Source: Candidatus Babelota bacterium (lineage in GTDB: Bacteria > Babelota > Babeliae > Babelales > Vermiphilaceae). From it: 64,000 nt of DNA. This document shows positions 41,401 to 56,841 of the stretch, in pieces. The translations under genes and the position numbers were made by a program. The notes below the pieces were generated by a model. The model was not told the DNA's origin. It saw only the letters and a list, made by a program, of their open reading frames with translations, and did no database searches. Numbering within the stretch: position 1 is the first letter of the stretch; the number at the start of each line of letters is the position of its first letter. The DNA lies in contig JBMOLF010000001.1 in NCBI GenBank assembly GCA_049325595.1, positions 64,001-128,000 on the forward strand, read 5' to 3'.

Positions 41401-41436
41401 ATAAAAAAAAGGTCCCTAGAGAAGGAACCTTTTTAT
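41401..41436. terminator. Putative intrinsic terminator hairpin
   Basis: AAAAAGGTCCCT..AGGAACCTTTTT imperfect inverted repeat flanked by A/T runs. Confidence 0.6.
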
Positions 41437-41465: not shown

Positions 41466-41915
41466 CTAGCTTATTGATAGCGCATAAAGTTCAGCAAGCA
41501 GAGCTTCATCTAATGCTATACGTTCTTTAGTAAGACCTTGTTCATCCAATGTATTTTGACAAATATACACACCCAATAAGGTTTTAATCGCAGCAAATAA
41601 TGATAGCCCCAAAGAGTTATAGCGTGAATGTAAAACAAAATAAATATGTTTTAATCCAGCAACAGTTAGATAGCCACCAACTACGAGCTTGGCCACATAA
41701 GCTAATTTTTTATTTAAGCTTTTTTGTGAAAACCGCAAATCATTTTTTACTAGCTTGGTATAGAGAGAAAGATGATTTTTTATGTTTGGGATTTTTTTAA
41801 TTGATTGATGCTCTTTATATTGTGCTACAAGCCAATTATAGGTAAATTCTTTTGGTTCTTGCGCTTGTAAGCTTATACCTATTAATATGGCACAAAAAAA
41901 CGTAAATAATTTCAT
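41466..41915 (-). CDS. Hypothetical protein (signal peptide plus 2 TM)
   Basis: ORF architecture only. Confidence 0.65.
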   Translation of the reverse strand: MKLFTFFCAILIGISLQAQEPKEFTYNWLVAQYKEHQSIKKIPNIKNHLSLYTKLVKNDLRFSQKSLNKKLAYVAKLVVGGYLTVAGLKHIYFVLHSRYNSLGLSLFAAIKTLLGVYICQNTLDEQGLTKERIALDEALLAELYALSIS

Positions 41916-41932
41916 AAGTTTTCTTTCATTAG

Positions 41933-42373
41933 CTATTTTGATGGATCAATAATATTTGTTTCATACACTAATGCTTTGTGAATTAAATACCCGCCAAAAG
42001 TCACAAAGATCATTGATGCAAACTTATGAAGCCCTCTAAGCGGACTAACAAGATCTTGCAATACCGCTCTTACATTATCGGTATGGGCATAAGTATCCCA
42101 TTTGGTAATGCCACTTTTATCTTTTGCAAACAAACTTGAACAATGCAAATTAACTAATTTTTTCAGACCTGCTTCAGTTTTATCGCTCTGATAAGCAAGA
42201 TGATAAGATTTGCAACCCAAAGCCACAAGCACCGCGCCCGTTACTATAAGCAATACTCGATCAGCTGGCTTTATCTGACGACTTTTTTGCTCACGTTGAT
42301 CTTTTTTACAAGATTCTGCTTGAATGGTAACAAATGGTTGGAGAATAAGTAGAGTAAGTAATATTTTTTTCAT
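41933..42373 (-). CDS. Hypothetical protein (signal peptide plus 2 TM)
   Basis: ORF architecture only. Confidence 0.65.
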   Translation of the reverse strand: MKKILLTLLILQPFVTIQAESCKKDQREQKSRQIKPADRVLLIVTGAVLVALGCKSYHLAYQSDKTEAGLKKLVNLHCSSLFAKDKSGITKWDTYAHTDNVRAVLQDLVSPLRGLHKFASMIFVTFGGYLIHKALVYETNIIDPSK

Positions 42374-42393
42374 GGTGGGTTTCTTTAAAAAAG

Positions 42394-42810
42394 TTATTGA
42401 TTTTCAGATAATTTAACACGTGCTTTACACATACCTTTATAAATGCTGATCTGTTTAGAAAACTCATCCATCCCATAGAGACGTATAAACTTTATAGTAA
42501 ATTCAGCGCATGCAACAGGCACCTTCAGCTGGCTAAGTTCTTGCCCAATATTTGTCTCAAAACAGTCTTGTAAAACTTTTTCTATTTTAATTTTTTCTCT
42601 TCTGACATGGGCTTGCTCATTTTTTTCTGCTTCTGCTTCACTTGTCATCTCTTTTATATTTTTTATGGTACTTGTTGTATACGAAGCTGCTTCAGCAATT
42701 TTTAAGGTTACTTCTAACACAAAGAGTAAATCCATAGAGAGAGCAGCATTTGTAAAAAAAATAGAAAATAGTAAAGTTGTTTTTTTTATTTTTATAATGT
42801 TTATAAGCAT
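42394..42810 (-). CDS. Small secreted protein, C-x17-C family
   Basis: Signal peptide; CFETNIGQELSQLKVPVACAEFTIKFIRLYG. Confidence 0.7.
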   Translation of the reverse strand: MLINIIKIKKTTLLFSIFFTNAALSMDLLFVLEVTLKIAEAASYTTSTIKNIKEMTSEAEAEKNEQAHVRREKIKIEKVLQDCFETNIGQELSQLKVPVACAEFTIKFIRLYGMDEFSKQISIYKGMCKARVKLSENQ

Positions 42811-42893
42811 AAGAAATTATATCGGCATTTATATATAACAAAATAAGATTGAACAATTCTCAATTTATGAATGTCAGCTTAAATTAAAAATAT

Positions 42894-43232
42894 CTATGTA
42901 AAATTCTCATATTCTTTCCATTTTTCTTCTGGAATTAGCTTATTGTAAGATTGAACAACATTTAAAATTAATTCATCGACATCCTCAAGAATTTCAGCAA
43001 GTGTCATTAACAGGAATCTCATATAGATTAAAATTAAAATCGCTTCAAAGCCATGTGTGCCTGGCAATGAATTTAACCTTTTACTAAGCAAATCCAGATA
43101 ATCTTTTATAACTTCAAATTCTTGGAGACTTTTTTTTGTATTTTCTATCATCTCTATTTGAATTGATTTTATTGGATTTAATTTATAAAGGTGCTCAATT
43201 TTTTGTAAAATTATTTTAGTTTCTTCAATCAT
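42894..43232 (-). CDS. Hypothetical protein, possible immunity protein
   Basis: 112-aa helical ORF overlapping the upstream gene by 4 nt (ATGA). Confidence 0.55.
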   Translation of the reverse strand: MIEETKIILQKIEHLYKLNPIKSIQIEMIENTKKSLQEFEVIKDYLDLLSKRLNSLPGTHGFEAILILIYMRFLLMTLAEILEDVDELILNVVQSYNKLIPEEKWKEYENFT

Positions 43233-43807
43233 GACAATTTGCTCAAAGCTGCTTTAGTGTTTTTTATATCACATCCGCCGTCTACTTTTAGAATGATTTT
43301 TATTTCATTGTGTTTATTAAATACTTCAATTTTTCTTTCATCAATTTTTACATAATCATTTTTTCTCAAGTAAATGTTTACTGATTGTTTTAATTGTAAC
43401 TTTTTAGGATATTTACTTTTTATTAACAAATTATTTGATACAAGCTGATTAATAAATTGAGATGAAATAACATCACAAAATAGTAATTCTTTTATATCAT
43501 CTTTATGTTCAAAATTAACTTTTGGGAACTTAAGAACTATAGTATCAATGTAATTTGCGATATTACTTAATGTTGCTGCCATTGAACCATTAAGCGAATA
43601 AAATCTTACAAGTTCTAATATAATTGCCGGTAAATCATTTTTTATTAAGAATCGATCAATTTTTTCATGACTTTCTTTAATCGCATCTTCTAAAATGGAA
43701 ATTTCATTAGAATCAATTTCTTCAGTTATAGTTTTAGGAGAAATATTTAACTTAAATGTCTTGTTAAGTTGCTCGACTGCTCGAGATAAATTATTAATGA
43801 CGCACAT
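43229..43807 (-). CDS. Putative immunity protein of the orphan toxin tip
   Basis: Starts 4 nt after the toxin-like ORF; no signal peptide. Confidence 0.5.
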   Translation of the reverse strand: MCVINNLSRAVEQLNKTFKLNISPKTITEEIDSNEISILEDAIKESHEKIDRFLIKNDLPAIILELVRFYSLNGSMAATLSNIANYIDTIVLKFPKVNFEHKDDIKELLFCDVISSQFINQLVSNNLLIKSKYPKKLQLKQSVNIYLRKNDYVKIDERKIEVFNKHNEIKIILKVDGGCDIKNTKAALSKLS

Positions 43808-43811
43808 TAAA

Positions 43812-44087
43812 TCATACCTTTATTGTTCGGCCCATCGCATTTTTTGCTTTTATGTAATTAACTGTCCCATCCAGGTTTAAAACTGTTCTTGCAAAACCTC
43901 GCTTATCATAAACCTCAATGTGATCAAAATGAGTTTTATCGATATAATAATGAAAACCTTTTTTTAGATCAGGATGTCCGAAATCTTTTTTTATTTTATA
44001 TACGATTGATTCCTTAACAATAAGATGAGTTTTTTGGGAAAAGTCTTTTAACTTATTGCCGAAATCAGTTTTAAAAAGTTCCTTCAT
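43812..44087 (-). CDS. Orphan polymorphic-toxin C-terminal domain, colicin E3/CdiA-CT-like RNase
   Basis: YYIDKTHFDHIEVYDKRG...VLNLDG resembles the D-x2-H-x2/3-E-x-Y catalytic pattern of colicin-E3-type RNases; no N-terminal delivery region. Confidence 0.6.
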   Translation of the reverse strand: MKELFKTDFGNKLKDFSQKTHLIVKESIVYKIKKDFGHPDLKKGFHYYIDKTHFDHIEVYDKRGFARTVLNLDGTVNYIKAKNAMGRTIKV

Positions 44088-44235
44088 ATTTAGAACTTTG
44101 CTGTAACAAGTATTGCGTTATTTCCAGCATTCACTTATATAGTGCTTCCTGAATAATTATCGAATGGGATAACCAAATACTTTGATTTATGACTTTTTTA
44201 ATTTCGAATTTAATTTTAATTTAAAATAGACTCTT

Positions 44236-44273
44236 TATAACACATACCCTTATCTTAAGGCGTATGTGTTATA
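44236..44273. repeat. Inverted repeat: 17-bp stem with one bulged C
   Basis: TATAACACATAC-CCTTA-tct-TAAGG-c-GTATGTGTTATA. Confidence 0.8.
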
Positions 44274-44300
44274 TGGGTATACTTTGTTGTTCTTTTAGTT

Positions 44301-44633
44301 TTATTCTTGGTTTGATAGATCAGCTTTCTGCATTTCTTGATATGAGCGCATTTTTTTTAAAAGCTCAGTAGTTCCGTGTAATAAAATAAAATCTTTAACA
44401 AATTCTGCACATTTTATAGGCAAATCTAACTGACTTAGCTCACTGCCCAAATTAATCTTTAAACATTCATTAAGACTTTTTTCGATTTTTCTTTTTTCAA
44501 TGTTTAGTTGTGCTTGTTGGTATGCATCTTCTTGAATAACACTATTTGTAGCATAAGATATTTTTGAATAGAACAATGCGTTGGTTGAATTTAGTAAAAT
44601 AAATAAGAAATCGATAATGTTAATTTTTTTCAT
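44301..44633 (-). CDS. Small secreted protein, C-x17-C family
   Basis: Signal peptide; CLKINLGSELSQLDLPIKCAEFVKDFILLHG; close paralog of 42394-42810. Confidence 0.72.
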   Translation of the reverse strand: MKKINIIDFLFILLNSTNALFYSKISYATNSVIQEDAYQQAQLNIEKRKIEKSLNECLKINLGSELSQLDLPIKCAEFVKDFILLHGTTELLKKMRSYQEMQKADLSNQE

Positions 44634-44680
44634 AATGAAATCCCTTTATATGGAGTTAAAATCTTTTTTGATCTACAAGA

Positions 44681-45436
44681 TTAGCTATATTTTTTCTGAA
44701 CACGTTCAGTTAAAGAACCTTTTTCACGAGCTTCTCGTTTTAGTTCAATTAATTCACATTCGTAATCTGAAAGGAATTCAGATTCTTTTAAAGGTTCAAT
44801 TGAAGAAGTATTAACTTTATCTGCAATCTTCGCTACATGAATTATCTTATCCGTTGTAGGAAGATTTTTAAAATCATTGATATATTGTGTAGTAGCATCA
44901 CGTGCAATATCAGCTGCTGACTTAGCGACTGTTATAATTGCAGGGGCTGCACCAGGAATCATTACTATGGCAACTCCTGTAGCGGCAACAGCGAACACAC
45001 AACCTGATATTATTAGTGCCTTTTGAGATGATGACAGTTCACCACTAGCTGTCTCTTTTTCTTTTATTGTTTTAATTACATCTTTATATTCTTGAATAAG
45101 TTCATTTGCTTTTTGCGCACCTCCAGCAAGTTTAAATGCATTCAAACATTCTGAACATTTACCTGGAATATCGTCAATTGAGTCCCTTTTAGCATGAGTT
45201 ACTAAACAATCAATAAAATTTTTTTCTAATTTGAGTAAGCGCGCTTGTTTTTTTAATTCTGCAATGTCATCTTTATTATTAACCTGGATGACTTTGCCTC
45301 CAATTGCAAAAACATTACAAGTTGTGGCAGCTAATTTTCCTATTGCCTCTACTAATTTGAGTTTGTCCCAAAGTGAATCATTGGGACTTGTAGTTTGATG
45401 AATAATTATAAAAATAGCTAAGAACGTCTTTTTCAT
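44681..45436 (-). CDS. Secreted C-x16-C family protein with TM segment
   Basis: CLVTHAKRDSIDDIPGKCSECLNAFKLAGG; hydrophobic ALIISGCVFAVAATGVAIVMIPG. Confidence 0.72.
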   Translation of the reverse strand: MKKTFLAIFIIIHQTTSPNDSLWDKLKLVEAIGKLAATTCNVFAIGGKVIQVNNKDDIAELKKQARLLKLEKNFIDCLVTHAKRDSIDDIPGKCSECLNAFKLAGGAQKANELIQEYKDVIKTIKEKETASGELSSSQKALIISGCVFAVAATGVAIVMIPGAAPAIITVAKSAADIARDATTQYINDFKNLPTTDKIIHVAKIADKVNTSSIEPLKESEFLSDYECELIELKREAREKGSLTERVQKKYS

Positions 45437-45972
45437 TTTGGTCTAACTAGATAAAAATCTGCACTTTTTTTCATACATTCTTTATTGCCAAGATAAAATG
45501 TAAATTGATCAATTAAATCTTTACAGGCTATGGGCATTTGAGTTGTTTCATCAAGCTCATCTGACTTATGCTGCAATAAACATTTATCCAGTAATACCTC
45601 AATTTCATATCCTCTAAGTCGTTTTTTTGCAAGCTCATTTCTTTCTTTTTGTTCTGGAGAGGGTCTTAACCAATTAATAAAACTTCCAATTGTAGCTCCA
45701 ACCACTGAAAAATTTCTACCAATATTTGAGATACTTTCAACTGTTCCTACAACACCTTTTTGAACTGCATTAGCTATTTTTTCATTGCTATCAGCCGTTC
45801 GTTCTTGTGGCGTTTTTTCTGAGTTAGTATCGTGTGCTTGATTTTTTTGATTTTCAACAATGTTTACATCATTCAAGTTAACTGTCTCAGAGGCTATTGA
45901 AATTTCATATGAAAGGCCGCTCAAAATAGCTATTAAAACCAGAAAAGTAATATTATTTTTCATCAAGAACAT
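45433..45972 (-). CDS. Secreted C-x18-C family protein
   Basis: Signal peptide; CLLQHKSDELDETTQMPIACKDLIDQFTFYLG. Confidence 0.72.
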   Translation of the reverse strand: MFLMKNNITFLVLIAILSGLSYEISIASETVNLNDVNIVENQKNQAHDTNSEKTPQERTADSNEKIANAVQKGVVGTVESISNIGRNFSVVGATIGSFINWLRPSPEQKERNELAKKRLRGYEIEVLLDKCLLQHKSDELDETTQMPIACKDLIDQFTFYLGNKECMKKSADFYLVRPK

Positions 45973-45980
45973 CCTTTATT

Positions 45981-46481
45981 TTATTGTTTATTAAATGATT
46001 TGATCTCATTAACACAACTATCCCACTTAGCTAAAAATATACTTAGCAAATTTAGTTCATATCCTGTTCTAATAAATTGATAAATTAATAACTGCTTATC
46101 AAAGTCATCTAAATATTTAACTTCAACAAATTCGGTTATTAGCCTACACGTAAAAATGCTTTGTTTTTCATTCACAAAATTATTCCATACTTTTTGAAGA
46201 CAATCTTCAAAATCTTCCGCATATTGATCTGCTAATTTACTATTTGTCTCTTTACCAATAGCTACTAAAATTCTTTTTATTAATTTATCCCGTAGAAATT
46301 CATATTCTTTTCTAGCATCAGAAACAACTTTCTTTTGCTCAGTTATTTTTTTTCCTAAAGCTGATAATTCTTGGTATTTCTGTATTAACTGATCTGATGC
46401 GTTATCATTGCCGGAAAGAATAGAAGAAAAAATTAAAGAATAGACGATAAACCATTTCTTCATAAGAAGTGATTCCCCCAA
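45981..46481 (-). CDS. Secreted helical protein
   Basis: MKKWFIVYSLIFSSILSG signal peptide; coiled coil; a C-x17-C spacing is present. Confidence 0.68.
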   Translation of the reverse strand: MGESLLMKKWFIVYSLIFSSILSGNDNASDQLIQKYQELSALGKKITEQKKVVSDARKEYEFLRDKLIKRILVAIGKETNSKLADQYAEDFEDCLQKVWNNFVNEKQSIFTCRLITEFVEVKYLDDFDKQLLIYQFIRTGYELNLLSIFLAKWDSCVNEIKSFNKQ

Positions 46482-46515
46482 GGTGTATGGCTAAATAAAT
46501 TACTGCTGATGCGGA

Positions 46516-46544
46516 ATTATAAAAAAAATTTAATTAAATGTCTA
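46516..46544 (-). promoter_or_regulatory. Putative sigma70 promoter for the small secreted-protein cluster
   Basis: TAGACA-17 nt-TATAAT on the minus strand. Confidence 0.65.
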
Positions 46545-46607
46545 ACAAATAGATAAAATTTTCTCTTGTGAAATTTTTGAGCTAGGTAAGTGAATTTAAT
46601 GTTTCAT

Positions 46608-47069
46608 TTATACAAAAACTGGCTTTAACCAGAGGGCTTGTAATTCGTTTTTTTCAATTACCGCAACAACATTAGTGATAAATTCAACCGCTTGATTATT
46701 CTTAGTTGGATCGCCTACGCAAACCCAGCCTGACTGCTGATTATAATAAACTGGCCAATGAATGTTGTTTAATCTATAAGAAAACCCTGGTTCATAACTT
46801 TTTAAAACCTTTAATTGTCCCACCTCATAATTTGGCACAGGCAAATCTGTTAAAATCCATTCGTGATTAGGGCAAAATCCATCAACTTGTACCACTAAAT
46901 TATTTACCACCGTTAAATTTAAATAGTTTATAACTAAAACAAAATCAATTCTTGCAGTAAATGGTCTAATATTAAAAGAAAATTCATCAAATAAGTAAAA
47001 TAATTTTCTTTGCTTTGCCTGTACAAATTCATCTTTAATTATGAATTCCATAAAATCTTTATTGATCAC
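46608..47069 (-). CDS. Hypothetical protein, possible immunity protein
   Basis: Beta-rich cytoplasmic ORF ending GWVCVGD...AVEF....VAV......ALWLKP; coupled to the upstream immunity array. Confidence 0.6.
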   Translation of the reverse strand: MINKDFMEFIIKDEFVQAKQRKLFYLFDEFSFNIRPFTARIDFVLVINYLNLTVVNNLVVQVDGFCPNHEWILTDLPVPNYEVGQLKVLKSYEPGFSYRLNNIHWPVYYNQQSGWVCVGDPTKNNQAVEFITNVVAVIEKNELQALWLKPVFV

Positions 47070-47869
47070 CTAGGATCCAGTGAAAGCTCAACAAAATCTA
47101 GTCCTTGGCATATTGAGGCTAATAAATCTAGATAGCGCCAATAATCAAAAACTACATCAGGACCACTAAATATACGCTCTTGCTTCCAAGGAAAAAAAGC
47201 ATTTGATATCTGCATGATTAATTCTTTATTCTCTGTATTAACGCAAATACCCATAAAAAAATAGGTGCCCTCACATTTGACATACAAATTATTACTCATC
47301 CGCTTTTCAATTTTTTCTATGATTTCTTGAACTGATAACAAGTAAGAATCACCGTACCATTCGTCATTTTGATATTCAAAAAAATAACATTCTTGAACTT
47401 GAGCGTTAGAAACAATACTGTGTACAGTTTTTGTTAAATCTGCGTAATTAAACTTAAGAGAAATAGAATGAGTATTATCAGAATCAGAATTAAAAAAACT
47501 TTTAGAACTAATGCGTTTAACAGGCCCTATATAAAACTGCTCAATTTCAAAGTTAATAGCTAATAGTAGCGCGTAAGAAAACATTAAATCTGTATTACAA
47601 ATAAAATTACTTGGAATAAAACTCAATACAAGATGTTGCTTAATCAACTGCATTGATAAATTAAAAAAAATATTGTTATGCGAAAGAATCAAAGTGGTAC
47701 TTAAATCAGTTTTTATGATTTGTATAAGTTCATTTTTCCCCAAAAATATTATTTCTTTGTTTTCGTTATAAAATAAAAATTGATTCAGTAATAAATTTGC
47801 ATGCAACCCATTTATAGATTCGCCAAAATCATCACGTACTTTTAATTTCATAAAAGCTGCATTAGTCAT
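47066..47869 (-). CDS. Putative immunity protein (two tandem repeat units)
   Basis: C-terminal DYWRYLDLLASICQGL matches the motif in the two neighbouring ORFs; N-terminal half is a degenerate copy. Confidence 0.6.
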   Translation of the reverse strand: MTNAAFMKLKVRDDFGESINGLHANLLLNQFLFYNENKEIIFLGKNELIQIIKTDLSTTLILSHNNIFFNLSMQLIKQHLVLSFIPSNFICNTDLMFSYALLLAINFEIEQFYIGPVKRISSKSFFNSDSDNTHSISLKFNYADLTKTVHSIVSNAQVQECYFFEYQNDEWYGDSYLLSVQEIIEKIEKRMSNNLYVKCEGTYFFMGICVNTENKELIMQISNAFFPWKQERIFSGPDVVFDYWRYLDLLASICQGLDFVELSLDPR

Positions 47870-47877
47870 AACAATCC

Positions 47878-48264
47878 TTATTCATATGTTGGTAATGAAT
47901 AATAGGGTTCTGTAAAAAATTCTTTTAAGAAAAAATTTTCGCATATAGCAAGTACACATTTTATGTATAAAGATAAATCATTTTGCTGTTCTTTAAACTT
48001 TGGAATAGCACTAATAATTGTTTTAGATGTTTGATATTCAATACTAATGTCTAGAAAAACTGTTTTATATTTAATTGCTAATTTTATTAATCTGTTACTA
48101 AAAAAAAGATCGCAAAATTCAGTTGCTGAAATCTGAACAGCATGGTTAAAGCTAGGATCATAAAAAGTTATTTTATTCATTAACATATTACCATACAAAG
48201 CTAGAGCAGCACTTTTTAAGTCATTAGCATCAACATAAGAATATATTTTATATTCGTTATTCAT
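47878..48264 (-). CDS. Putative immunity protein
   Basis: DLSLYIKCVLAICENF motif; paralog of 48261-48713. Confidence 0.6.
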   Translation of the reverse strand: MNNEYKIYSYVDANDLKSAALALYGNMLMNKITFYDPSFNHAVQISATEFCDLFFSNRLIKLAIKYKTVFLDISIEYQTSKTIISAIPKFKEQQNDLSLYIKCVLAICENFFLKEFFTEPYYSLPTYE

Positions 48265-48713
48265 GATATGCTCTCTTTCATAATTCCAATTACAGCAAAA
48301 TCATTACATAACTTAAGCATAATATTGATATAACGAGCAAAATCTAAACCATATGTGGGCAATCTTAAAAGAGGAATTAGACCGCTGTGAACAAACTCTA
48401 CTTCCCAATTAATAAAATCGCTAAAAGTTATCTCGCACAAACCAGCATCAGTTTTGTTGATCCAGAATTTAAAAGCTGTATCTTTATAGCGAGTAAAAAT
48501 TCCATAATATTCTATGTTACTATTTTCATCAAAGTTAATTATTCTTTCTGCAATCTCATCGGGACCAATTAATTTTGCAGCCTCATAACCTTCATTCCAA
48601 ATATAATTATAATAAATAAAGCCAATTTTTAATCCCGACTCTGAAATTTTCTTAATGTATTCCTGGTTATAAGAAAGATTAATCGTTGCACTAACTACAT
48701 GCAATAAACTCAT
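48261..48713 (-). CDS. Putative cognate immunity protein
   Basis: Starts 1 nt after the toxin stop; DFARYINIMLKLCNDF motif. Confidence 0.65.
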   Translation of the reverse strand: MSLLHVVSATINLSYNQEYIKKISESGLKIGFIYYNYIWNEGYEAAKLIGPDEIAERIINFDENSNIEYYGIFTRYKDTAFKFWINKTDAGLCEITFSDFINWEVEFVHSGLIPLLRLPTYGLDFARYINIMLKLCNDFAVIGIMKESIS

Positions 48714-48714
48714 T

Positions 48715-51700
48715 TTATCCCTCTATGAAAGATATACCATTGTCATAAAACCATTTTTGCCAATGTTCTGGAATAGGCTGCTTGGAATGCACCTCAAACG
48801 TCTTTCCATAAGCACTCGCATTTTTTTTCTGCTCAATAAATCTACTTTTCATAGTCTGCATTTTTTTTGCAGTTATATTTTGCCAGTATCTATCTTTGCA
48901 TTCTATTAACTTGGATAAAGTTTCTATATCAAATTCGCAAGTCTTATTCCCAGGAAGTTTTCTTCCAAAATAAACAACTTTTTCACCTTTTGATTCTAAG
49001 TTAAGAGCTTTTTCAAGTTCATAAATAGCACCCCTAGCGGTATTTAAATCATTACCATCTAAAGTCTTGGTTGCCGTCTTTAAAATTTTATATAGGGGTC
49101 CATCTTTATTCCAAAAACTATTCACCTCTTTAAATAACCTTGCCCCATCAGTTACCTTCTCAACATTAATTATTGATTCCATCTCGAAATTTGTTAAATA
49201 TTCTGAAACTGTTTTTAAATTTTTAAGAACAGCATTTATATGCTCTTCTAGCTGCTGATTAGTGACAACTAATTTACCTATGCTATTAGTTATCCTCTCA
49301 GCTTCCATGAACTGTGCTGGAATTTTACTTTCTACTGCAAATCCTTCAGCAGTTTGGGCTACCGCATTTACTTCTTTTAATTCGCGTAAAATATTTTCTG
49401 CTCGTGCAAGAGCCACTTGTATTGCAGGAGACGTTGCATTAAAAATTACTCCCAATCCCTGATCGATCAATAATCCTTCAGTAACCATTCTGCCTATTAA
49501 CTTTGCTTTTTCTTGTACGGGTAGTTCGGCTAATGCAATCATAGTTTTGGCAAGATTGATTCCATCTGTACCAACTCTATTGCAAAGACTATTTAATTTT
49601 GCAGCACATTTTTCTAAATCATCCTGCAACACTATGTCAGCCAAATCCAATAAAATATCTGCGGTATATACAAAAGGTTTTATAAATCCTTCAGTTGCAT
49701 TGAGCACAAACTGTTCTGGATTTTTTGCAATCTCGCTACCTAACTCTGAACCTTCTCTCACCGCCAACCACGCACATTCAGCCGCCAGTTTTTCATTGTT
49801 ATACAATTCAGTTATAAAAGTGCTTGGAATCTCAGATAAAAGACGATTAAGACAATCGTCAATAAGCACATTTTTATTGTGCACCTTTAAATCTTGGTAA
49901 GAAGCTTTTGATTCATAATCACTGAGTATTTGAATTGTTTGCTTTAATGTATGGGCAATTGATGAGCCTAATGGATTAATAACACGCGCTGTATCAGAAA
50001 AAACAATATTTTCAGTAACTACATAAAGCTTGTGGGCCACATTTTGCGCAGAATAAGCAACTTGATTAAAACAATGTTCTAATGAATGTCCTACATATTT
50101 TGATACTGTTTGGCCATATTCAAACAAAGACCAGCAAAAATCCGCTAAACTAAGTGCTTTAGAGGCATGCCCTTCTAAATTTACTTTTGCGGTATGCAAT
50201 AAATAATCAGCAATCTTACTATGCAGCGTTTTATCATAATCTGAGGCTGTCTTTTTAAATGATAATTCTGAAACCTTATTAAAGAGTTCAACAACCTCAG
50301 TATGTACAACTTGCTGAATTGCGTTACCAATACAATATTCTAAAACTCTTTGATTTTCTTTTTTTTGATTAAGCAACCATTTTGATTCTAAGCTAAGTTC
50401 ATAATTTTGTTCGTAAACAATAGAACCATGCTCTTTAATAAAATTTAATGCTTCTTCTCGGCGGGTTACAATAAACTCCGCTTGCTTGTTATTTTCAGAT
50501 AAGACAAGTGGTGCTACTTGTTCATACTTATCTAGTTGCGCCTTGCAGTCATTAAAATTTTGTTCTATTAAGTTAGTTATCTCATTTCTTAAAGAAGAAT
50601 CTATATGGTAATTATATTTTTTTTGATGCTTACTTAAATTAACAAATCTGGCGATAACCGGCGCATTATAGGAATAATCCCATTGAGGAATTTTATTATC
50701 AGATTCCTCTATTTTAGGTAATCCATTAATAGTCAATTCATTTTTCACCAAATTTTGTTCAGCAATTGTAGCCTGTGGCGATGAAGCTTGAGCAATCAAA
50801 CTATCTTGGTCATTAACTGCAATTGCCTGCTTAGCATTTAAGTTGTTCTCTGATGCTAAAGATTCAGTTTTATTTTTTTTCAACCCTGAAATTATACGAT
50901 TGTAAGGCAACAGACTTTCGCTATTTTTTAGATAGTCGGCAGCTTCATTTGATTTATTATTTTCTGCTAATTTTATGAGATGGCCAAGTTTTTGATTTAC
51001 CTCATTAGCTTGTACTTTTTTTAAAAAGGTTTTGGGAGTACAACCACGTTGTAAATTTTTTATACCATTTATAATCTGTTGCGAACTGCTTTTTGCACAC
51101 TGGTAGGCCTGTCCAATCCCACCTTCGGTTTTTATTGTATTTAAAATACTGGTACGTGAATTAATATCATTTACTATAGTCGATTTAAAATTATCAGTAT
51201 TGATCGATAACAAAGTGTCATACCACTCTGCTGGACTTCCTGAAATTGTCTTGCAAAAATCGGCACAAATTTGCGTTATTAATTGTCTGTCATTGCTAGA
51301 AAGATCTACCTTAATTGTTGCATCCGGAGCGCATGCGACTAAACTAAGCTTTTCTTTTATTGGTATCCATTGCTGATTATAGCTGGTATTATTTATGGAG
51401 CTATGCAATAACTCATGAATAGCTTTTACCGTTGAAAAACTATTATTACTTTCAAGCAAAGTTTTAAAGTTTGTTTTAATAGATTCAATAGCATTGAGTG
51501 TGGCAACATCACAAAGATTTTTTTGAATCGGAACATTAACTAATAATTGAACAGGATTATCAGATAAATAAGGATTTAATTCTGATGCGAGTTTCTTTTC
51601 AGAACTATAAAGATATAACGATTGTCCCTCATTCCAATGCTGATTAAGAATAGGATTATTTCGATAGAGTGGAATAACATCTAATGCTTTTCCATTACCC

Positions 51701-51936
51701 CACTCTATTTCATGATATTGCTTATATGCGCTATAGTTTTCCATACGATTAAAACTACTATTAAGAGATTTTGATCGTTGATCATAAACAATATCATTTT
51801 GTTTAGAGGCAATTTCTACATAGGGTTTGGAAGTAGTACATTTTTGTACATTACTAAAGTGCGCAATAGGCACTGGAACATCTTTATATGAACCCCAGAT
51901 TGGCAACGTTATGCATAATACTATTAAAAAAAACAT
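48715..51936 (-). CDS. Large secreted polymorphic toxin-like protein with C-terminal PD-(D/E)XK (REase-fold) nuclease
   Basis: Signal peptide; long helical body; C-terminal GAIYE...EFDIE....IECK...Q motif; followed by small coupled genes. Confidence 0.75.
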   Translation of the reverse strand: MFFLIVLCITLPIWGSYKDVPVPIAHFSNVQKCTTSKPYVEIASKQNDIVYDQRSKSLNSSFNRMENYSAYKQYHEIEWGNGKALDVIPLYRNNPILNQHWNEGQSLYLYSSEKKLASELNPYLSDNPVQLLVNVPIQKNLCDVATLNAIESIKTNFKTLLESNNSFSTVKAIHELLHSSINNTSYNQQWIPIKEKLSLVACAPDATIKVDLSSNDRQLITQICADFCKTISGSPAEWYDTLLSINTDNFKSTIVNDINSRTSILNTIKTEGGIGQAYQCAKSSSQQIINGIKNLQRGCTPKTFLKKVQANEVNQKLGHLIKLAENNKSNEAADYLKNSESLLPYNRIISGLKKNKTESLASENNLNAKQAIAVNDQDSLIAQASSPQATIAEQNLVKNELTINGLPKIEESDNKIPQWDYSYNAPVIARFVNLSKHQKKYNYHIDSSLRNEITNLIEQNFNDCKAQLDKYEQVAPLVLSENNKQAEFIVTRREEALNFIKEHGSIVYEQNYELSLESKWLLNQKKENQRVLEYCIGNAIQQVVHTEVVELFNKVSELSFKKTASDYDKTLHSKIADYLLHTAKVNLEGHASKALSLADFCWSLFEYGQTVSKYVGHSLEHCFNQVAYSAQNVAHKLYVVTENIVFSDTARVINPLGSSIAHTLKQTIQILSDYESKASYQDLKVHNKNVLIDDCLNRLLSEIPSTFITELYNNEKLAAECAWLAVREGSELGSEIAKNPEQFVLNATEGFIKPFVYTADILLDLADIVLQDDLEKCAAKLNSLCNRVGTDGINLAKTMIALAELPVQEKAKLIGRMVTEGLLIDQGLGVIFNATSPAIQVALARAENILRELKEVNAVAQTAEGFAVESKIPAQFMEAERITNSIGKLVVTNQQLEEHINAVLKNLKTVSEYLTNFEMESIINVEKVTDGARLFKEVNSFWNKDGPLYKILKTATKTLDGNDLNTARGAIYELEKALNLESKGEKVVYFGRKLPGNKTCEFDIETLSKLIECKDRYWQNITAKKMQTMKSRFIEQKKNASAYGKTFEVHSKQPIPEHWQKWFYDNGISFIEG

Positions 51937-51954
51937 AGCTAACTTATTCCACTC

Positions 51955-53280
51955 TTAAATTTTCTCTTTTTTTAAATCCTGTAAATAATTTATGGTCTTT
52001 GTATCGCTCTTAATCAATGATTTATTGTCCTGCCAAGCCAATACTTTGTCTTTCAATTTTTCATCACTGTATATCTGCAAATTATTATGAAAATTCGATT
52101 GTTCGAGCTGATGATTAAAGCTTTGTTGTTGCAAATTTAATTGAGTATCAAACTGATTTGATTGAGTTCTTAACTGTATATAAAAGTTGCGTTGATTTAA
52201 ATATAAGTTAAGAATCGATATTACTGTTGGTAATCCCTGAGTAATAAATATTCTCATACCTGGTTTTATTTTTTGGTATAAGTTACCAAACCAGTCATTC
52301 CATGTGTTCCAATTTTTGATGAGACGCTCAAAATCTTGCTCTTGAATAACAATATCTGTTTTGTTTCTAATCTTGGCGTTACGTGCAGCTTGCTTAACTA
52401 AACGATCTAGCATTCTTAAAGGTTTACCCTTAGTTCGGTGGGCTATGTAATCTATATATTTATCATTGATTTTATACGGAATACTAAGAGCAGCTAGGTG
52501 ATACCTTATCGCCTCTTTACGCGAATTATAACTTGACTGACCTAATGTGATAATATCAAAATCAATAAAACGTGTTTTTATAGGTGATGGCAAATCTTGA
52601 AAAGCTTTGTTAGAAGTACCAATAAAAAACACATTTCCATATTTATTACAATCATCAAGCATTGTCCAAAATTTAGCAACCGCAGCTTTATCTTGTTTAT
52701 TATCAGCTTCAGCCAAATCGGTAATCTCAGTAAATTCATCCAAAATCAAAACACAATCTGTTTGAGTCTTAAACAAAGTATGAAATAAATGGTTTATATT
52801 TTCAGCTCCAGAATGTTTGTACTTATCAAGTAAATCAGGAGCTCTTTCTAGTCTATACCTTCTTTTTGTTACTTTTGCTATAGCCATAGCCAAGCTAGTC
52901 TTACCCATTCCAGGTTCTCCTAAAAGCAACATTCTATCGGGCAATAAATCTCTGGAAATTGGATCTATTAAACTATCAACAATGTCCTCAACCTCAGCAG
53001 GAGCCGAATCTATTAATTTTTTAGCAAAATCATCACTTATAGAGTGAATATCATCATTGAATATATTATTTTGGTTAAATTTTAAAGAATATGTCTTAGT
53101 GCTCTCTTCAGTATCTTCATCAATATAAATAATTGGTTTTTTTGTAATAACCCTGTCAACAAGATCATTTACTCGTATAGATGTGCGCGTATTGTTGATA
53201 GTTTCCTGGCAATAGAGGTTACTTGATAAGCTTATGCTGATAAATATATTAAAAAGAATTACACTTATATTATTCTTCAT
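51955..53280 (-). CDS. AAA+ ATPase (classic clade) with signal peptide-like N-terminus and C-terminal hydrophobic helix
   Basis: GEPGMGKT, LILDE, IGTSN, LPSPIKTRF. Confidence 0.88.
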   Translation of the reverse strand: MKNNISVILFNIFISISLSSNLYCQETINNTRTSIRVNDLVDRVITKKPIIYIDEDTEESTKTYSLKFNQNNIFNDDIHSISDDFAKKLIDSAPAEVEDIVDSLIDPISRDLLPDRMLLLGEPGMGKTSLAMAIAKVTKRRYRLERAPDLLDKYKHSGAENINHLFHTLFKTQTDCVLILDEFTEITDLAEADNKQDKAAVAKFWTMLDDCNKYGNVFFIGTSNKAFQDLPSPIKTRFIDFDIITLGQSSYNSRKEAIRYHLAALSIPYKINDKYIDYIAHRTKGKPLRMLDRLVKQAARNAKIRNKTDIVIQEQDFERLIKNWNTWNDWFGNLYQKIKPGMRIFITQGLPTVISILNLYLNQRNFYIQLRTQSNQFDTQLNLQQQSFNHQLEQSNFHNNLQIYSDEKLKDKVLAWQDNKSLIKSDTKTINYLQDLKKEKI

Positions 53281-53301
53281 GTTGCAGCACCCTTTGATGT
53301 C

Positions 53302-54351
53302 TCATGCGTGATCATTCATCCAGCGCTCATATCTTCTATCGGCTTTAATGGTGTAGTACAAATTAATCATTGAAAATAAGATGGGTGGACCATATATAAG
53401 CACATCTCTTATAGTAAATTTATTTTTATTAATAAATTCTTTTAACGAAAATGATTTTTTACTTTCATGCAAGGCACGTAAAAAGTCATTTTTTGTAATT
53501 ATGCTTCGTGGATTTTTATAATGCGCATACTGCGCCGCTCGTATAATTACGGATTCAATTTCACGAATAGACATTCCCGCAGTTTTTGTTGCAAGCCACC
53601 GACATTCCGATCGCGTCCAATCTTTAGTAATTTGACCTAAATAAAATGCGATTATTTCTACCCTATTGTCATAGTCAGGTAGATTTATGGGAACAATAAA
53701 ACCTTCAAATCTACTTTTTAAAGGTCCAGGAATATCGTTAAGATCATTAGCAGTTGCAATAAAAAAGATATTTGGATTTTGAGCGCATCGATCGAGCAAC
53801 AACCACAGCGCCTCAAGTAACCCTGGATCAATATCCTGTCCCTCTTTTTTATTTTTGAAAAATACATTGATTTCATCGATAATAATGGTCATTTTTTGAT
53901 TTGATTCTAAAATTTCACCAAATATTTTTAATAAATTTTGAGGACCGGAATGTTTATATTCATTGGCAACAAAAGGTGCTTCTATCACTATATAATCTGC
54001 CTCAAGCATATGTCCTATCGCTTTTGCTAATGTTGTTTTCCCACATCCAGGAGGACCAACCAATAAAAGCCTTTTAGGTTTTGCCTTTGCATATATTAAT
54101 GGATAACGAAGATTATAAATAATTTGTTTAAGTCGTTCAGACATTTGCTTTTGAACTAGAGAAAGCAACAAACTATCTTCTTGCTGATCACTACAATACG
54201 CACTATCCTCAATAGGAATTTTTTTGATATTTTTATCGACTAATTCAGCTACAGATTTTGGTTTTTCTTCTGAATTAGGTACAATATTATTAAAATAGAA
54301 AGACAACAGAATAATTATTAAGTAGCAAACATTAAAATGGACTTTTCTCAT
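53302..54351 (-). CDS. AAA+ ATPase (classic clade) with signal peptide-like N-terminus and C-terminal hydrophobic helix
   Basis: GPPGCGKT, IIIDE, IATAN, IPGPLKSRF, LPD...R..I, T.GMS.REIE. Confidence 0.9.
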   Translation of the reverse strand: MRKVHFNVCYLIIILLSFYFNNIVPNSEEKPKSVAELVDKNIKKIPIEDSAYCSDQQEDSLLLSLVQKQMSERLKQIIYNLRYPLIYAKAKPKRLLLVGPPGCGKTTLAKAIGHMLEADYIVIEAPFVANEYKHSGPQNLLKIFGEILESNQKMTIIIDEINVFFKNKKEGQDIDPGLLEALWLLLDRCAQNPNIFFIATANDLNDIPGPLKSRFEGFIVPINLPDYDNRVEIIAFYLGQITKDWTRSECRWLATKTAGMSIREIESVIIRAAQYAHYKNPRSIITKNDFLRALHESKKSFSLKEFINKNKFTIRDVLIYGPPILFSMINLYYTIKADRRYERWMNDHA

Positions 54352-54393
54352 AAATTCTCATAAAAATAGCTCGAAACTTTTTTTTGACCGCTA

Positions 54394-54422
54394 AAACTAA
54401 CATAAAATTATGGGAATCTCAA
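54394..54422 (-). promoter_or_regulatory. Possible sigma70 promoter of the AAA-toxin operon
   Basis: TTGAGA-17 nt-TAGTTT with TG extended -10. Confidence 0.35.
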
Positions 54423-54585
54423 TCTAAAATTTGCCATATTTGACTTTTTGAAAATATTTTGCTTATCCTAAAATGTAGTAATAGACAAAATTTATAAGAA
54501 TGATACAACATTATTCATTACTTTTAACAATTAATAGACGGCTCGAGTTTATAACAACTGGTTGAAGAGATCGAAAGTAGTAGCC

Positions 54586-56841
54586 ATGAAAAAATTGCTG
54601 ATAGTAGAGTCACCAGCAAAAATTAAAACGATATCCAAGTTTTTGGGCAAAGATTTTAAAATTATGTCCACTATGGGACATGTTAAGGATCTGCCTGCCA
54701 AAAAAGTTGGTGTTACACTTTCTGATGATGCTATCGATATTGAATATGTTGCTATTCCTGATAAAGAAAAGACCATTGCAGAAATTTGCAAAGCGGCCTC
54801 TTCTGCTGACGAAATTTATTTAGCGCCCGACCCTGACCGTGAGGGTGAAATTATCGCATGGCATATTGAGCAAGAAATAAAAAAAGTTGCCAAGAAAAAA
54901 GCGAAAATTCATCGTATTACCTTTAACGAAATTACCAAATCAGCCGTTACTGAGGCAATTGAAAATCCTTTTGAGGTGGATTTACAAAAAGTAGCTGCTC
55001 AACAAGCACGCCGTGTGCTTGATCGTTGGGTGGGTTATGAAGTTTCACCTATTTTATGGACTAAACTAGCACCGGGTCTTTCTGCTGGTCGTGTGCAATC
55101 AGTTGCTTTGCGCTTAATTTGCGACCGTGAAGAAGCAATTCGTAGCTTTAAACCAGAAGAATATTGGACCATTGCAGGAATTTTTTCCGGTGATCATGGC
55201 AAAATAGAAGCAGCATTAACTCATATTGGTAAAGAAAAGGCCGAAATTAGCAGTAAACAACAAGCTGATGAATTAGTAAAAAAATTAAAAGCTGCCTCAT
55301 ATGAAATAGAAAGTATTACTGATAAAGAGCGTCTTAAAAATCCGTACGCTCCTTTTATGACCAGTACTTTACAGCAAGCGGCATTTAACCAGCTTGGTTT
55401 TTCGGTTAAAAAAACTATGCAACTTGCCCAACAATTGTATGAGGGTATTCCGCTCGATGATCCAAAAAGCCCGATCGCGCTCATTACTTATATGCGTACC
55501 GACTCACTACGTTTATCAGACACCGCTATTAAGCAAGCACGAGATTTTATTAGCGATCATTTTGCCAAAGATTACCTGCCAAAAACGGCTATGGTATATG
55601 AAAAATCAAAAGGTAAAGCAAAAACCCAAGATGCGCACGAAGCAATCAGGCCTATTGATGCCAACATTACTCCTGAACGTGCTGGTCGTTATTTACCAAA
55701 AGATCTTGCCAAATTATATGAACTTATTTGGAAACGTTATATTGCCTGCCAGATGAAGCCGGCAGTATATGCTCAGCGCCAAGTAGTTATTAAAGGTGAT
55801 AAATATCTTTTTAAAGTTACTGGTTCTACCTTAATTTTTGATGGGTTCTTAAAAGTATATTCTGGTGATGAGGAAGAAGAAAAAGAACAAAAAGTAGTTA
55901 TTCCTCATGGCATAAAAGCAAAAGATCCTTTAGATCTTGAAAAAATTAATCCAAAACAACATTTTACCCAACCGCCTCCAAAATATACCGAAGCTTCGTT
56001 AGTAAAAGAAATGGAAAAAGAAGGTATTGGACGCCCAAGTACGTATGCTACCATTATGAATACCATACGGGCACGTGCTTATACCACGCTTGATTCAAAA
56101 AAACGTTTTACCCCAACTGAACTTGGTATGACGGTAACCAAACTCTTAACAGAAAATCTTCCGCATATCATGAATATTAAATTCACCGCATTAATGGAAG
56201 AAGATCTTGATAAAATAGCGCAGGGCGAGTTCCAACGCGATGAATTGTTGCGTGAATTTTATAAAAATTTCCAAGAAGATATTGCCCTTTTTAAAGGAAA
56301 AGATGGTAAACGTATTGCTGAGCCTACCGATATTACCTGTCCTAAATGCAATGAAGGTAAACTGGCTATTCGTTTTGGTAAAACAGGCGAATTTTTAGGA
56401 TGCATGCGTTACCCCGATTGCGATTTTACTTCTAATTTTAAGCGAAATGAACAAGGTATTATTGAATTAGTTAAAGCTGAACCATTAGTAGTATTGGATG
56501 AGCCCTGTCCATTATGTGGTAAACCATTACGCCAGGTAAATGGCAAATTTGGCCCATTTATTGCCTGCTCTGGTTACCCTGAATGCAAATATATCCATCA
56601 AGTTAAAGCTAGTTTCCCCTGCCCGGTTGACGGCGGTGAAGTAGTGCAACGGCGTTGGCGCGGTGGTACCTTCTGGGGTTGTGGCAATTATCCAAAATGT
56701 AAGTTTGCCGTATTTGGTGATATTGAAGAAATACCATGCCCAAATTGTTCTTTGCCATTTTTAGTAAAAAAAGTTGATAAAGAAGGTAAAGTTACCCTCT
56801 TTTGCTCAGACAAAAAATGTGGCTATACCAAAGAAGAATAA
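54586..56841 (+). CDS. topA: DNA topoisomerase I
   Basis: IVESPAK, DPDREGE, SAGRVQS, ITYMRTDS (catalytic Tyr), C-terminal zinc ribbons. Confidence 0.97.
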   Translation: MKKLLIVESPAKIKTISKFLGKDFKIMSTMGHVKDLPAKKVGVTLSDDAIDIEYVAIPDKEKTIAEICKAASSADEIYLAPDPDREGEIIAWHIEQEIKKVAKKKAKIHRITFNEITKSAVTEAIENPFEVDLQKVAAQQARRVLDRWVGYEVSPILWTKLAPGLSAGRVQSVALRLICDREEAIRSFKPEEYWTIAGIFSGDHGKIEAALTHIGKEKAEISSKQQADELVKKLKAASYEIESITDKERLKNPYAPFMTSTLQQAAFNQLGFSVKKTMQLAQQLYEGIPLDDPKSPIALITYMRTDSLRLSDTAIKQARDFISDHFAKDYLPKTAMVYEKSKGKAKTQDAHEAIRPIDANITPERAGRYLPKDLAKLYELIWKRYIACQMKPAVYAQRQVVIKGDKYLFKVTGSTLIFDGFLKVYSGDEEEEKEQKVVIPHGIKAKDPLDLEKINPKQHFTQPPPKYTEASLVKEMEKEGIGRPSTYATIMNTIRARAYTTLDSKKRFTPTELGMTVTKLLTENLPHIMNIKFTALMEEDLDKIAQGEFQRDELLREFYKNFQEDIALFKGKDGKRIAEPTDITCPKCNEGKLAIRFGKTGEFLGCMRYPDCDFTSNFKRNEQGIIELVKAEPLVVLDEPCPLCGKPLRQVNGKFGPFIACSGYPECKYIHQVKASFPCPVDGGEVVQRRWRGGTFWGCGNYPKCKFAVFGDIEEIPCPNCSLPFLVKKVDKEGKVTLFCSDKKCGYTKEE

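Follow-up and report, generated by a model that had tools for sequence, protein, structure and literature searches.

What is the function of a block of head-to-tail genes in a Babeliales bacterium of the phylum Dependentiae (Babelota) that begins with two AAA ATPase genes (AAA1 and AAA2), continues with the gene for a protein of 1073 amino acids (aa), here called BIG, and ends in a row of small genes (g4-g15)? The block occupies positions 42394-54351 of the window, by which we mean the whole stretch of 64,000 nucleotides (nt) that was analysed (assembly GCA_049325595.1, contig JBMOLF010000001.1, forward-strand positions 64,001 to 128,000), and an original prediction made from the letters of this DNA had proposed that it encodes a new polymorphic-toxin system. 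BIG is a member of a large family in which an N-terminal export signal and a helical constant module, MID, are joined to an exchangeable C-terminal tip of ~100-190 aa, and we consider it very probable that the core of a polymorphic toxin system lies at this locus. The wider reading, in which the Babeliales bacterium employs such a system together with an accessory pair of AAA ATPases, is the best explanation available, and we lean towards it with some reserve.

A constant scaffold with exchangeable tips

Among the eight relatives returned by a word-indexed protein search with BIG, one (P0002) is identical to it at 856 of 922 aligned positions (~93%) up to the tip junction, departs from it after '...IPAQFMEAE' (residue ~880) and then continues into an unrelated tip of ~230 aa. 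Another (P0003) is 68% identical to BIG along the full length, and P0004-P0008 resemble it only over the final ~170 residues and, weakly, in the centre of the protein. BIG matches are present in 65 of 261 genomes of the phylum and fall into two separable parts, residues ~450-700 and ~920-1073, the second of which occurs in open frames of 104 to 1312 aa. A tip of the P0002 type also ends an 871-aa open reading frame (ORF) beside AAA genes in a further genome (G187, 6e-32).

The replacement of one tip by another can be followed at the locus itself. When contigs of four public sequencing runs were compared with positions 42000-56000 of the window, run X1 proved identical over the stretch and may be its source; the three other runs had shares of 0.14-0.43, and among these X2 alone yielded a long contig in collinear order. 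Collinearity of the X2 contig (158,324 nt, as long as the contig recorded for P0002) with the window extends over topA, AAA1, AAA2 and BIG as far as 49296, which corresponds to codon 881; there 526 nt (BIG residues 881-1056) are replaced by 2,783 other nucleotides, and collinearity is back at 48769. Because it resumes at that position, X2 still has the genes g4-g7 and the final 17 codons of the old tip. Displacement of this kind is a classic mark of polymorphic toxin loci, and tips are exchanged by recombination at the junction between MID and tip. The differences between the two strains are concentrated at the BIG tip and in the region of an orphan tip further downstream, where the stretch with g12-g14 (42658-44136) measures 5.8 kb in X2 versus 1.5 kb in the window; g8-g10 are collinear in X2 but strongly diverged. 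On a 2-kb contig of the source genome (G000), a 478-aa ORF (G000:C8:74-1510, plus strand) likewise terminates in a P0002-type tip (6e-13); it may be an alternative allele from a strain mixture or a second toxin.

The family to which BIG belongs is extensive. A MID profile built from an alignment of 28 sequences (A4) and scored against 1.84 billion representative proteins matched 1059 representatives, each a cluster at 50% identity, at E <= 1e-3, with 795 at 1e-10 and 290 at 1e-30. The best 149 of these include 111 complete proteins, 84 of them with a hydrophobic N-terminus; the stretch C-terminal of MID has a median length of 100 aa in this set, and BLAST sorts its 102 tips of 50 aa or longer into 32 clusters. 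Compared with Pfam, 16 of the 78 top representatives carry known toxin tips belonging to seven families (Ntox17 in six, Ntox21 in three, Ntox35 and EndoU in two each, and single cases of Cytotoxic, barnase-type Ribonuclease and DUF4258), while the other 62 are without any match. A separate scan of BIG relatives covered 24 proteins from 20 fetched loci and 6 further homologs; Pfam toxin tips were recognized in 10 of the 24 MID/BIG-type relatives, the named ones being EndoU_bacteria (two), Ntox35 (one), Ntox17 (four), the colicin-E3 'Cytotoxic' domain (one) and Ntox21 (one). The polymorphic-toxin reading is sustained by this variation of homologous C-termini, from the tip of P0002 to the seven Pfam families and the 32 clusters on one scaffold.

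The scaffold itself has no Pfam match in any of the 1+30+30+78 proteins scanned, matches at the level of DUF entries in the scan of the 24 relatives and 6 homologs apart, and an exact-sequence look-up of ten MID representatives returned the annotation 'hypothetical protein' and nothing else. The AlphaFold2 (AF2) model of MID is all-helical, with a predicted local distance difference test (pLDDT) score of 62 overall and above 80 for model residues 11-170 (BIG ~446-605). Its best match in a Foldseek search of the PDB, to the alpha-pore-forming toxins SmhB/AhlB, has an E-value of 0.047 and a template-modelling (TM) score of ~0.1, and a wider fold search (VIA) returned generic helical bundles with a best Z of 8.5 and no specific fold match.

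What kind of toxin does the tip of BIG itself represent? In an alignment of 20 tips of this type (A1), residues G90, E94, E133, C134, K135 and W139 are invariant and D124 is present in at least 90% of the sequences, the conserved motifs reading '...ARGAxYELE...FDI...KLIECK...'. The AF2 model of the tip has a mean pLDDT of 87.9, and PD-(D/E)xK nucleases stand at the top of its Foldseek matches in the PDB (E 3.5e-4 to 8e-3, TM ~0.42-0.45, match probability 1.00 for several): Cdn1 (3.5e-4), VC1899, Card1, Can2, AF1548 and the CdiA-CT of B. pseudomallei (8e-3), with the arenavirus cap-snatching endonuclease, NucS, XPF and PspGI as further matches. This ranking and the conservation of E94, D124, E133 and K135 support a PD-(D/E)xK nuclease fold with a conserved catalytic E..D..ExK constellation, and nuclease activity is predicted. 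BIG had been described from the outset as a large protein with a signal peptide-like N-terminus and a C-terminal PD-(D/E)XK motif; the N-terminus is hydrophobic, the motif is conserved and the fold has now been modelled.

Immunity genes, orphan tips and the layout of the block

The start codon of g4 lies 1 nt past the stop codon of BIG. Iterated profile searches of the fetched loci and of the source genome gathered 27 proteins of the g4 family, a member of which stands immediately 3' of 12 of 12 BIG-type tips (11 loci, the window included) versus 0 of 12 other tips; one to four members follow each toxin with a BIG-type tip. The family strictly accompanies the BIG-type tip, and g4 is predicted to be the cognate immunity protein. 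The presence of three paralogous immunity-like genes was rightly predicted, because a hidden Markov model (HMM) made from other genomes only finds g4 (3e-21), the C-terminal half of g6 (1.2e-10) and g5 (0.015), and because g5 and g6 match one another (2e-5, phmmer). Both g5 and g6 may protect against a second secreted nuclease or against foreign tips, while g7 showed no relatives in Pfam, own-genome or g4-family profile searches. A complex prediction for the BIG tip with g4 (A1 + A3) gave scores of 0.01 and 0.22 against a mark of 0.32 and weighs neither way. Elsewhere in the toxin family, the gene that comes after an Ntox21 toxin encodes a CdiI_N immunity protein (5e-24).

Domains of the BIG tip type also occur in other settings. 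A 205-aa paralog outside the window (G000:C1:165542-166159, plus strand) consists of a signal peptide and an intact BIG-type domain, with no g4-family immunity gene beside it, and short forms of 190-270 aa are found in many genomes of the phylum. In a protein of 1255 aa from another genome (L040:6219-9986, G009) the nuclease domain is placed mid-protein, at residues ~381-541, and a 302-aa g4-family gene lies upstream.

The genes g12-g14 form an orphan tip cassette. Homologs of g12 are present in 35 of the 261 genomes, mostly as the C-terminal end of frames of 300-1193 aa, and among 20 loci fetched for this tip it is borne by MID-containing proteins in five (L047, L052, L056, L061 and L064) and by other scaffolds as well. 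The start of g12 is the conserved Met in the motif 'NMxEFF' that opens the tip within full-length toxins, and alignment A2 of g12-type tips shows D50, E58 and G74 as invariant, with H53 and R87 close to it. Of the earlier description of g12 as an orphan RNase-like tip, the first part stands, since the same tip ends large toxins elsewhere; the second does not, as none of 23 aligned tips matches Pfam, Cytotoxic PF09000 included, at E<=1, and a profile of the tips found no nuclease among PDB sequences. The motif may bear a likeness to that of a colicin E3-type rRNase, which profiles do not back. The C-terminal half of g13, which matches such tips in phmmer, aligns to the g12-type tip yet is without H53 and R87; g13 is a decayed copy of the tip and not the small immunity-like gene it had been taken for. 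Its neighbour g14 matches an HMM of ~100-aa ORFs that lie 3' of g12-type tips elsewhere (7.5e-5 in a 19-sequence search), and there is a modest case for g14 as the likelier immunity gene. Such tips can be numerous at one locus: an array of five is found in L059 (G227:C29:18000-36000), of which three are standalone ORFs (91-146 aa), and an ORF of 180-222 aa comes after each.

Between the immunity genes and the orphan tip lie small secreted-looking proteins to which a common cysteine (Cys) pair had been ascribed. The pair is a family feature, within a C-x17-18-C domain, of g9, g10, g11 and g15; it is not one of g8, whose paralogs lack it. Copies of the g8-g9-g10 cassette are found on contigs C11 and C7 of the source genome, and in a genome of the same genus (G246) it immediately precedes an AAA-AAA-toxin operon. 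Whether C-x17-C genes stay near homologs of the system elsewhere had been named as a check; they do so in this last case but not in general, since relatives of g10 were found in just 9 of 261 genomes, about four of which (the source genome, G246, G233 and G073) have them close to a toxin or AAA match. Judged by these occurrences, the Cys-pair proteins are genuinely, if weakly, linked to the toxin/AAA loci.

As to the layout, 15 ORFs run head to tail on the minus strand, and topA (759 aa, plus strand, start at 54562) diverges from them (Table 1). The first seven genes, AAA1 to g7, are separated by intergenic gaps of -4 to 21 nt, which agrees with the tight coupling originally described for them; larger gaps of 126 nt and 213 nt separate g7 from g8 and g11 from g12. 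The content of guanine plus cytosine (GC) per kb is 0.26-0.32 over 40-54 kb, apart from a single bin of 0.35 at 49-50 kb, versus 0.35-0.38 in the flanks; the source genome (1.29 Mb in 24 contigs, 95% complete) has ~34.5% GC. ORF coordinates and GC profile confirm an AT-richer block of 15 co-oriented minus-strand genes beside topA, but the AT-rich run does not end with the fifteenth: it continues for four genes, g16-g19, to 39920. A terminator-like hairpin with a 12-bp stem is found after g17 (41406-41434), and g18 and g19 encode secreted-looking proteins rich in Lys, Glu and Ser. Sites resembling the sigma-70 consensus are not in excess in the region (59 versus 67.6 in shuffles). Pfam recognizes AAA1 and AAA2 only among the 15 genes (PF00004), the other 13 having no match at E <= 0.001. 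Hydrophobic N-termini are found in AAA1, AAA2, BIG, g8, g9, g11 and g15, whereas g4-g7 and g12-g14 have none.

Table 1. Features of the block and its immediate surroundings (positions in the window; res, residues)
Feature	Position	Strand	Description
AAA1	53302-54351	-	349 aa; hydrophobic N-terminal segment (res 8-24) and one classical AAA module
AAA2	51955-53280	-	441 aa; AAA module; N-terminal hydrophobic segment; Q/N-rich tail
BIG	48715-51936	-	1073-aa polymorphic toxin; a hydrophobic N-terminus (res 1-17) is followed by a lineage-specific N region, MID and the nuclease tip
MID module of BIG	49276-50631	-	res 436-887; all-helical constant scaffold of the toxin family
BIG toxin tip	48718-49296	-	res 881-1073; PD-(D/E)xK nuclease fold (modelled)
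g4	48261-48713	-	150 aa, without signal; predicted to be the cognate immunity protein for the nuclease tip
g5	47878-48264	-	128 aa; divergent paralog in the g4/g6 immunity family
g6	47066-47869	-	267 aa; two-domain paralog; res 134-265 form a full g4-family domain
g7	46608-47069	-	153 aa, cytoplasmic; possible further immunity gene, by position only
Sigma-70-like site TAGACA-17-TATAAT	46516-46544	-	g7-g8 gap; best match of the region; consensus only
g8	45981-46481	-	166 aa; signal-type N-terminus, coiled-coil-like; opens the g8-g9-g10 cassette
g9	45433-45972	-	179 aa; signal-type N-terminus; C-x18-C domain
g10	44681-45436	-	251 aa; C-x17-C-x2-C domain, then strong hydrophobic segment 155-171: membrane protein
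g11	44301-44633	-	110 aa; signal-type N-terminus; C-x17-C domain; 47% identity to g15
g12	43812-44087	-	91 aa; orphan toxin tip
g13	43229-43807	-	192 aa; C-terminal half a degenerate g12-type tip
g14	42894-43232	-	112 aa; candidate immunity protein for g12-type tips
g15	42394-42810	-	138 aa; hydrophobic N-terminus; C-x17-C domain; g11 paralog
g16 and g17	41466-42373	-	146 and 149 aa; each with signal and two hydrophobic segments; closely spaced with g15

The AAA ATPases and the route of export

Why should two ATPase genes stand at the head of a toxin operon? AAA1 and AAA2 match PF00004 at 1.6e-21 and 1.2e-20, and the solved sequences nearest to AAA1 are those of the p97/Cdc48 D1 module (5e-31). 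AAA1 has the Walker A motif GPPGCGKT and the Walker B motif IIIDE; AAA2, which is 28% identical to AAA1 and has a second, weak hydrophobic segment at 344-360, has both motifs too, and of 55 AAA domains in the family 49 have Walker A and 50 have Walker B. By sequence, both proteins are assigned to the classical Cdc48/p97-like AAA clade. The clade is expanded in the phylum, matches to AAA1 at 1e-20 being found in 50 of the 261 genomes, with up to seven per genome.

The association with toxins recurs outside the window. In a first sample, of 22 loci chosen by BIG matches, an AAA gene of the same clade lies beside the toxin in six (the window, contig C23 of the source genome, L022, L023, L024 and L032). 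A second sample of 20 loci, chosen by g12-type tips, has an AAA gene beside the toxin in ten, directly upstream in seven, one small ORF away in two (L060 and L061) and as AAA fragments further upstream in one (L062); two of the negatives in this sample are contigs too short to judge. A third sample took 20 loci chosen by AAA1 matches, and in 13 of them an ORF of 429-1475 aa is the next or next-but-one gene downstream, usually with small ORFs behind it. Strongly identified toxins are present at seven of these 20 loci (MID in L070, L076, L079 and L086, EndoU in L069, Ntox35 in L085 and a P0002-type tip in L081) and weakly identified ones at two more (EndoU in L067, 2e-4; MID in L080, 1.6e-4), which brings the adjacency in this sample to 7-9 of 20; the remaining large ORFs have mosaic modules in common with the identified toxins. 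At ~1100 genes per genome, with a handful of AAA genes and a handful of toxin genes among them, adjacency by chance is roughly estimated at about one percent. The AAA genes are syntenic with toxins elsewhere, as had been anticipated, and we regard a functional link between the two as fairly probable.

Other features were noted at such loci. A second repeated module of ~250-300 aa lies N-terminal to MID or to the tips in AAA-linked toxins (L067, L069, L079, L081, L082, L085 and L086) and is duplicated inside L086. A C-terminal extension is conserved in a group of eight toxin-adjacent AAA proteins; in the ESM Atlas it yielded no usable feature match, its neighbours being just coiled-coil-like with TM < 0.5. 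In two related genomes, ~1190-aa proteins of the MscS mechanosensitive-channel type are convergent with AAA genes of the same clade (L076:5222-8812 and L078:4353-7934).

What could be the part of the ATPases in the life of the toxin? We propose that g4 would bind and neutralize the nuclease in the cytoplasm of the producer and that the toxin would leave through Sec, possibly followed by the type II secretin pathway. A membrane-anchored AAA ring might unfold the toxin, or strip off its immunity protein, to make it export-competent, by analogy with secretion-system ATPases that act on chaperone-bound effectors. MID would then mediate binding to the target or entry into it, the target being a competing bacterium in the shared protist host or the host itself. 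The specific unfoldase or export role of the AAA proteins is the doubtful element of this scheme. Two secretins are encoded in the genome and belong to the only secretin-type system found there, and for Babela massiliensis type II secretion is the only secretion system that the accessible text of its genome report gives (PMC4378268).

A number of observations weigh against this reading. Adjacent AAA genes are missing at 16 of the 22 loci of the first sample and 10 of the 20 of the second, and many toxins, ~600-aa forms especially, stand without one. Of the 65 genomes with a BIG match, just 23 also match AAA1 at 1e-20, a strict threshold applied with one query per list, so that the AAA genes are not obligatory for the toxin family. 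The picture of the twin AAA genes as an ancient conserved pair has to be given up: in a quick tree the first and second members of tandems do not cluster by position (5 changes versus 4.8 in shuffles), and local duplication has repeatedly produced the pairs, without conserved first and second clades. In AAA1, positive residues flank the hydrophobic segments N-terminally and also follow the C-terminal segment. The positive-inside rule would put its ATPase outside the cytoplasm, a poor fit with an unfoldase that works in the cytoplasm. Signal-like N-termini abound in the phylum; in Chromulinavorax, signal peptides are present on 44% of coding sequences (PMC6561590). The model of MID is confident in part only, and nuclease activity, neutralization by g4 and export are all matters of inference.

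In a rival reading, the AAA proteins and the large proteins are separate secreted effectors directed at the protist host, brought together as neighbours in shared variable islands, with the immunity proteins merely protecting the producer before export. The charges around the hydrophobic segments of AAA1 suggest an exported module, and the AT-rich block is island-like. In one 894-aa protein (L075:2263-4947, plus strand, G111) ankyrin repeats are fused to an AAA module of the same clade and a C-terminal hydrophobic segment, an ankyrin-repeat protein follows the AAA gene in L077, and the fusion hints at action in the host, which is a further point against our scheme. Nine AAA/Ulp1-like proteins with atypical signal peptides are predicted to act in the amoeba cytoplasm in the case of Babela massiliensis (PMC4378268). 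However, the order of AAA gene, toxin gene and small ORFs is immediate and co-oriented in more than 20 loci of several families, which is beyond mere co-residence in islands, and the kinds of tip typical of conflict between bacteria are present along with polyimmunity arrays, orphan tips and a CdiI_N partner. Immunity genes are, moreover, usually missing for the host-directed toxins of endosymbionts, according to the survey of Zhang et al. 2012 (PMC3482391). We accordingly give the account by separate effectors a low probability.

Another alternative, the one put forward in the original prediction, makes the ATPases more central than we do. AAA machines such as Bcs1, Cdc48 and Msp1 move proteins across or out of membranes, and an AAA ring, or rings, anchored in the membrane by hydrophobic segments to one or either side of the ATPase module could be a dedicated machine for toxin translocation or extraction, a new AAA-driven route possibly aided by g8-g10 and not a mere helper of Sec. 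The tight upstream synteny across families of the phylum would agree with this, as would the cassette found directly upstream of the AAA-AAA-toxin operon in G246. A crude hydropathy scan of 54 AAA proteins found an N-terminal hydrophobic segment in 24 and a segment after the AAA module in 21, but both in only nine. The genome has no contractile sheath of a type VI secretion system (T6SS) or extracellular contractile injection system (eCIS): PF04984 and PF05943 gave 0 matches in this 95% complete assembly, neither a phage sheath nor VipB being found, and matched in control genomes. On the other hand, 84 of the 111 complete toxin representatives have signal-like N-termini of their own, many toxins are without an adjacent AAA gene, the g10 family was found in just 9 of the 261 genomes, and an outer-membrane component did not come to light. 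A search for a ShlB/CdiB outer-membrane transporter gave no match in the genome and none in its control genomes either. A dedicated machine of this kind seems unlikely. The same holds for the idea that in Dependentiae, for which only Sec and type II/IV-pilus secretins are known, a membrane-embedded, single-ring Cdc48-like AAA protein, often present as a tandem duplicate and in some cases joined by small membrane proteins with a Cys pair, is a dedicated motor that extracts toxins from their immunity proteins and drives them across the envelope, which we consider improbable; if true, it would amount to a new AAA-powered route of toxin delivery for warfare between parasites in one protist cell.

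The pairing of an AAA ATPase with a nuclease could also be taken for anti-phage defence of the IetA kind, with the nuclease as effector. PADLOC models of IetA do match AAA1 (1.1e-18) and AAA2 (1.5e-13), and the PD-(D/E)xK nuclease is there, but the matches span only the generic AAA module, no other PADLOC model matches any of the 13 other genes and the partner IetS was not found. Defence is further argued against by the protein that carries the nuclease, which bears a signal, belongs to a family with exchangeable tips and has cognate immunity genes, and by the life of the bacterium as an intracellular parasite of protists; we consider it very remote. The polymorphic toxin system with accessory ATPases remains the reading that we prefer.

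Relation to known systems

Dependentiae are a widespread phylum of obligate protist parasites, and polymorphic toxins have been described in many bacteria that live freely and in some endosymbionts. The literature that we searched holds no description of polymorphic toxins in Dependentiae (Babelota), and the main genome papers are silent on such toxins. The family comprises 1059 clusters; its scaffold is unannotated, its tips are of 32 or more types and several of its immunity families are new, which suggests strong conflict among strains that encounter one another within a single host cell. The locus offers a predicted new toxin of the PD-(D/E)xK type together with its inhibitor, as well as a small tip of a new type (g12), and the AAA proteins may provide a handle on how nucleases that are prone to fold and bound by immunity proteins are exported from bacteria apparently equipped with only Sec and type II secretion.

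How does the system relate to those already described? Domains that define the trafficking classes (type V secretion/contact-dependent inhibition, or T5SS/CDI; T6SS/PAAR-VgrG; type VII secretion, T7SS/LXG-WXG; Rhs/YD; MafB-DUF1020; MuF; PT-HINT) are absent from BIG and from the 30+30+78 relatives scanned, with the exception of a PT-HINT domain in one relative of the g12-tip type (L054), the sole class-defining domain among them. The original prediction had recognized no CdiB, VgrG/PAAR, Rhs/YD, WXG/LXG, Hint or MuF part, and for BIG Pfam agrees; with no described trafficking domain in the large protein (1+30+30+78 proteins scanned), the locus does not map fully onto a described system.

The nuclease tip shares its fold and catalytic motif with Cdn1, Card1, Can2, VC1899 and AF1548. 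It differs from these CARF-associated and other PD-(D/E)xK nucleases in the lack of a CARF domain, in a sequence identity of 12-20% and in being the tip of a secreted toxin with an immunity family of its own.

For the ATPases, the closest precedent within the phylum is the set of AAA and permuted Ulp1-like proteins of Babela, likewise an expanded AAA family with atypical signals beside predicted membrane proteins, in a comparison by description (PMC4378268). Those proteins are read there as host-directed desumoylases, with no toxin link in that text, whereas no peptidase domain was found in the 20 AAA proteins scanned here, nor in their conserved C-terminal extension. A genetic link between Cdc48-like AAA ATPases and toxins of the polymorphic type is known from Photorhabdus virulence cassettes (PVC) and other eCIS, and T6SS have ClpV. 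The present locus differs from these in having no sheath or VipB gene, a single AAA module with hydrophobic anchors in place of the cytosolic double-ring type, and toxins with signal-like N-termini. In the accessible part of the survey of Zhang et al. 2012 (PMC3482391), AAA+ ATPases are listed just for T6SS (ClpV) and PVC (Cdc48-like), both of which depend on phage-tail machines that this genome lacks. The recurrent upstream AAA ATPase described here is outside every described trafficking class of polymorphic toxins.

CDI and Rhs systems have in common with the present one swappable tips, cognate immunity proteins and displaced orphan modules; in the case of CDI the likeness extends to a relative that pairs Ntox21 with CdiI_N and to the B. 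pseudomallei CdiA-CT among the fold matches of the tip. BIG differs from their toxins in being without TPS, filamentous-haemagglutinin, YD and PAAR domains in Pfam, and a VENN motif is present neither in BIG nor in the 149 MID representatives.

The MafB toxins of Neisseria, placed in a 'T2SS/Sec' (type II secretion/Sec) class in PMC3482391, show a signal peptide, a constant region, an exchangeable C-terminal toxin, an immunity gene directly downstream and orphan tip-immunity cassettes nearby, all of which are seen here, and Ntox17, a tip of the BIG family, is listed for MafB toxins in the same paper (Zhang et al. 2012). The differences lie in the absence of a DUF1020/MafB N-terminal domain, the constant part being a new helical module; in AAA ATPase genes upstream in place of mafA; and in the bacterium, an obligate parasite of protists. 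The cassette logic of the locus is that of MafB, CDI and Rhs; what is new is the scaffold, the immunity and tip families, the phylum and the recurrent AAA partner.

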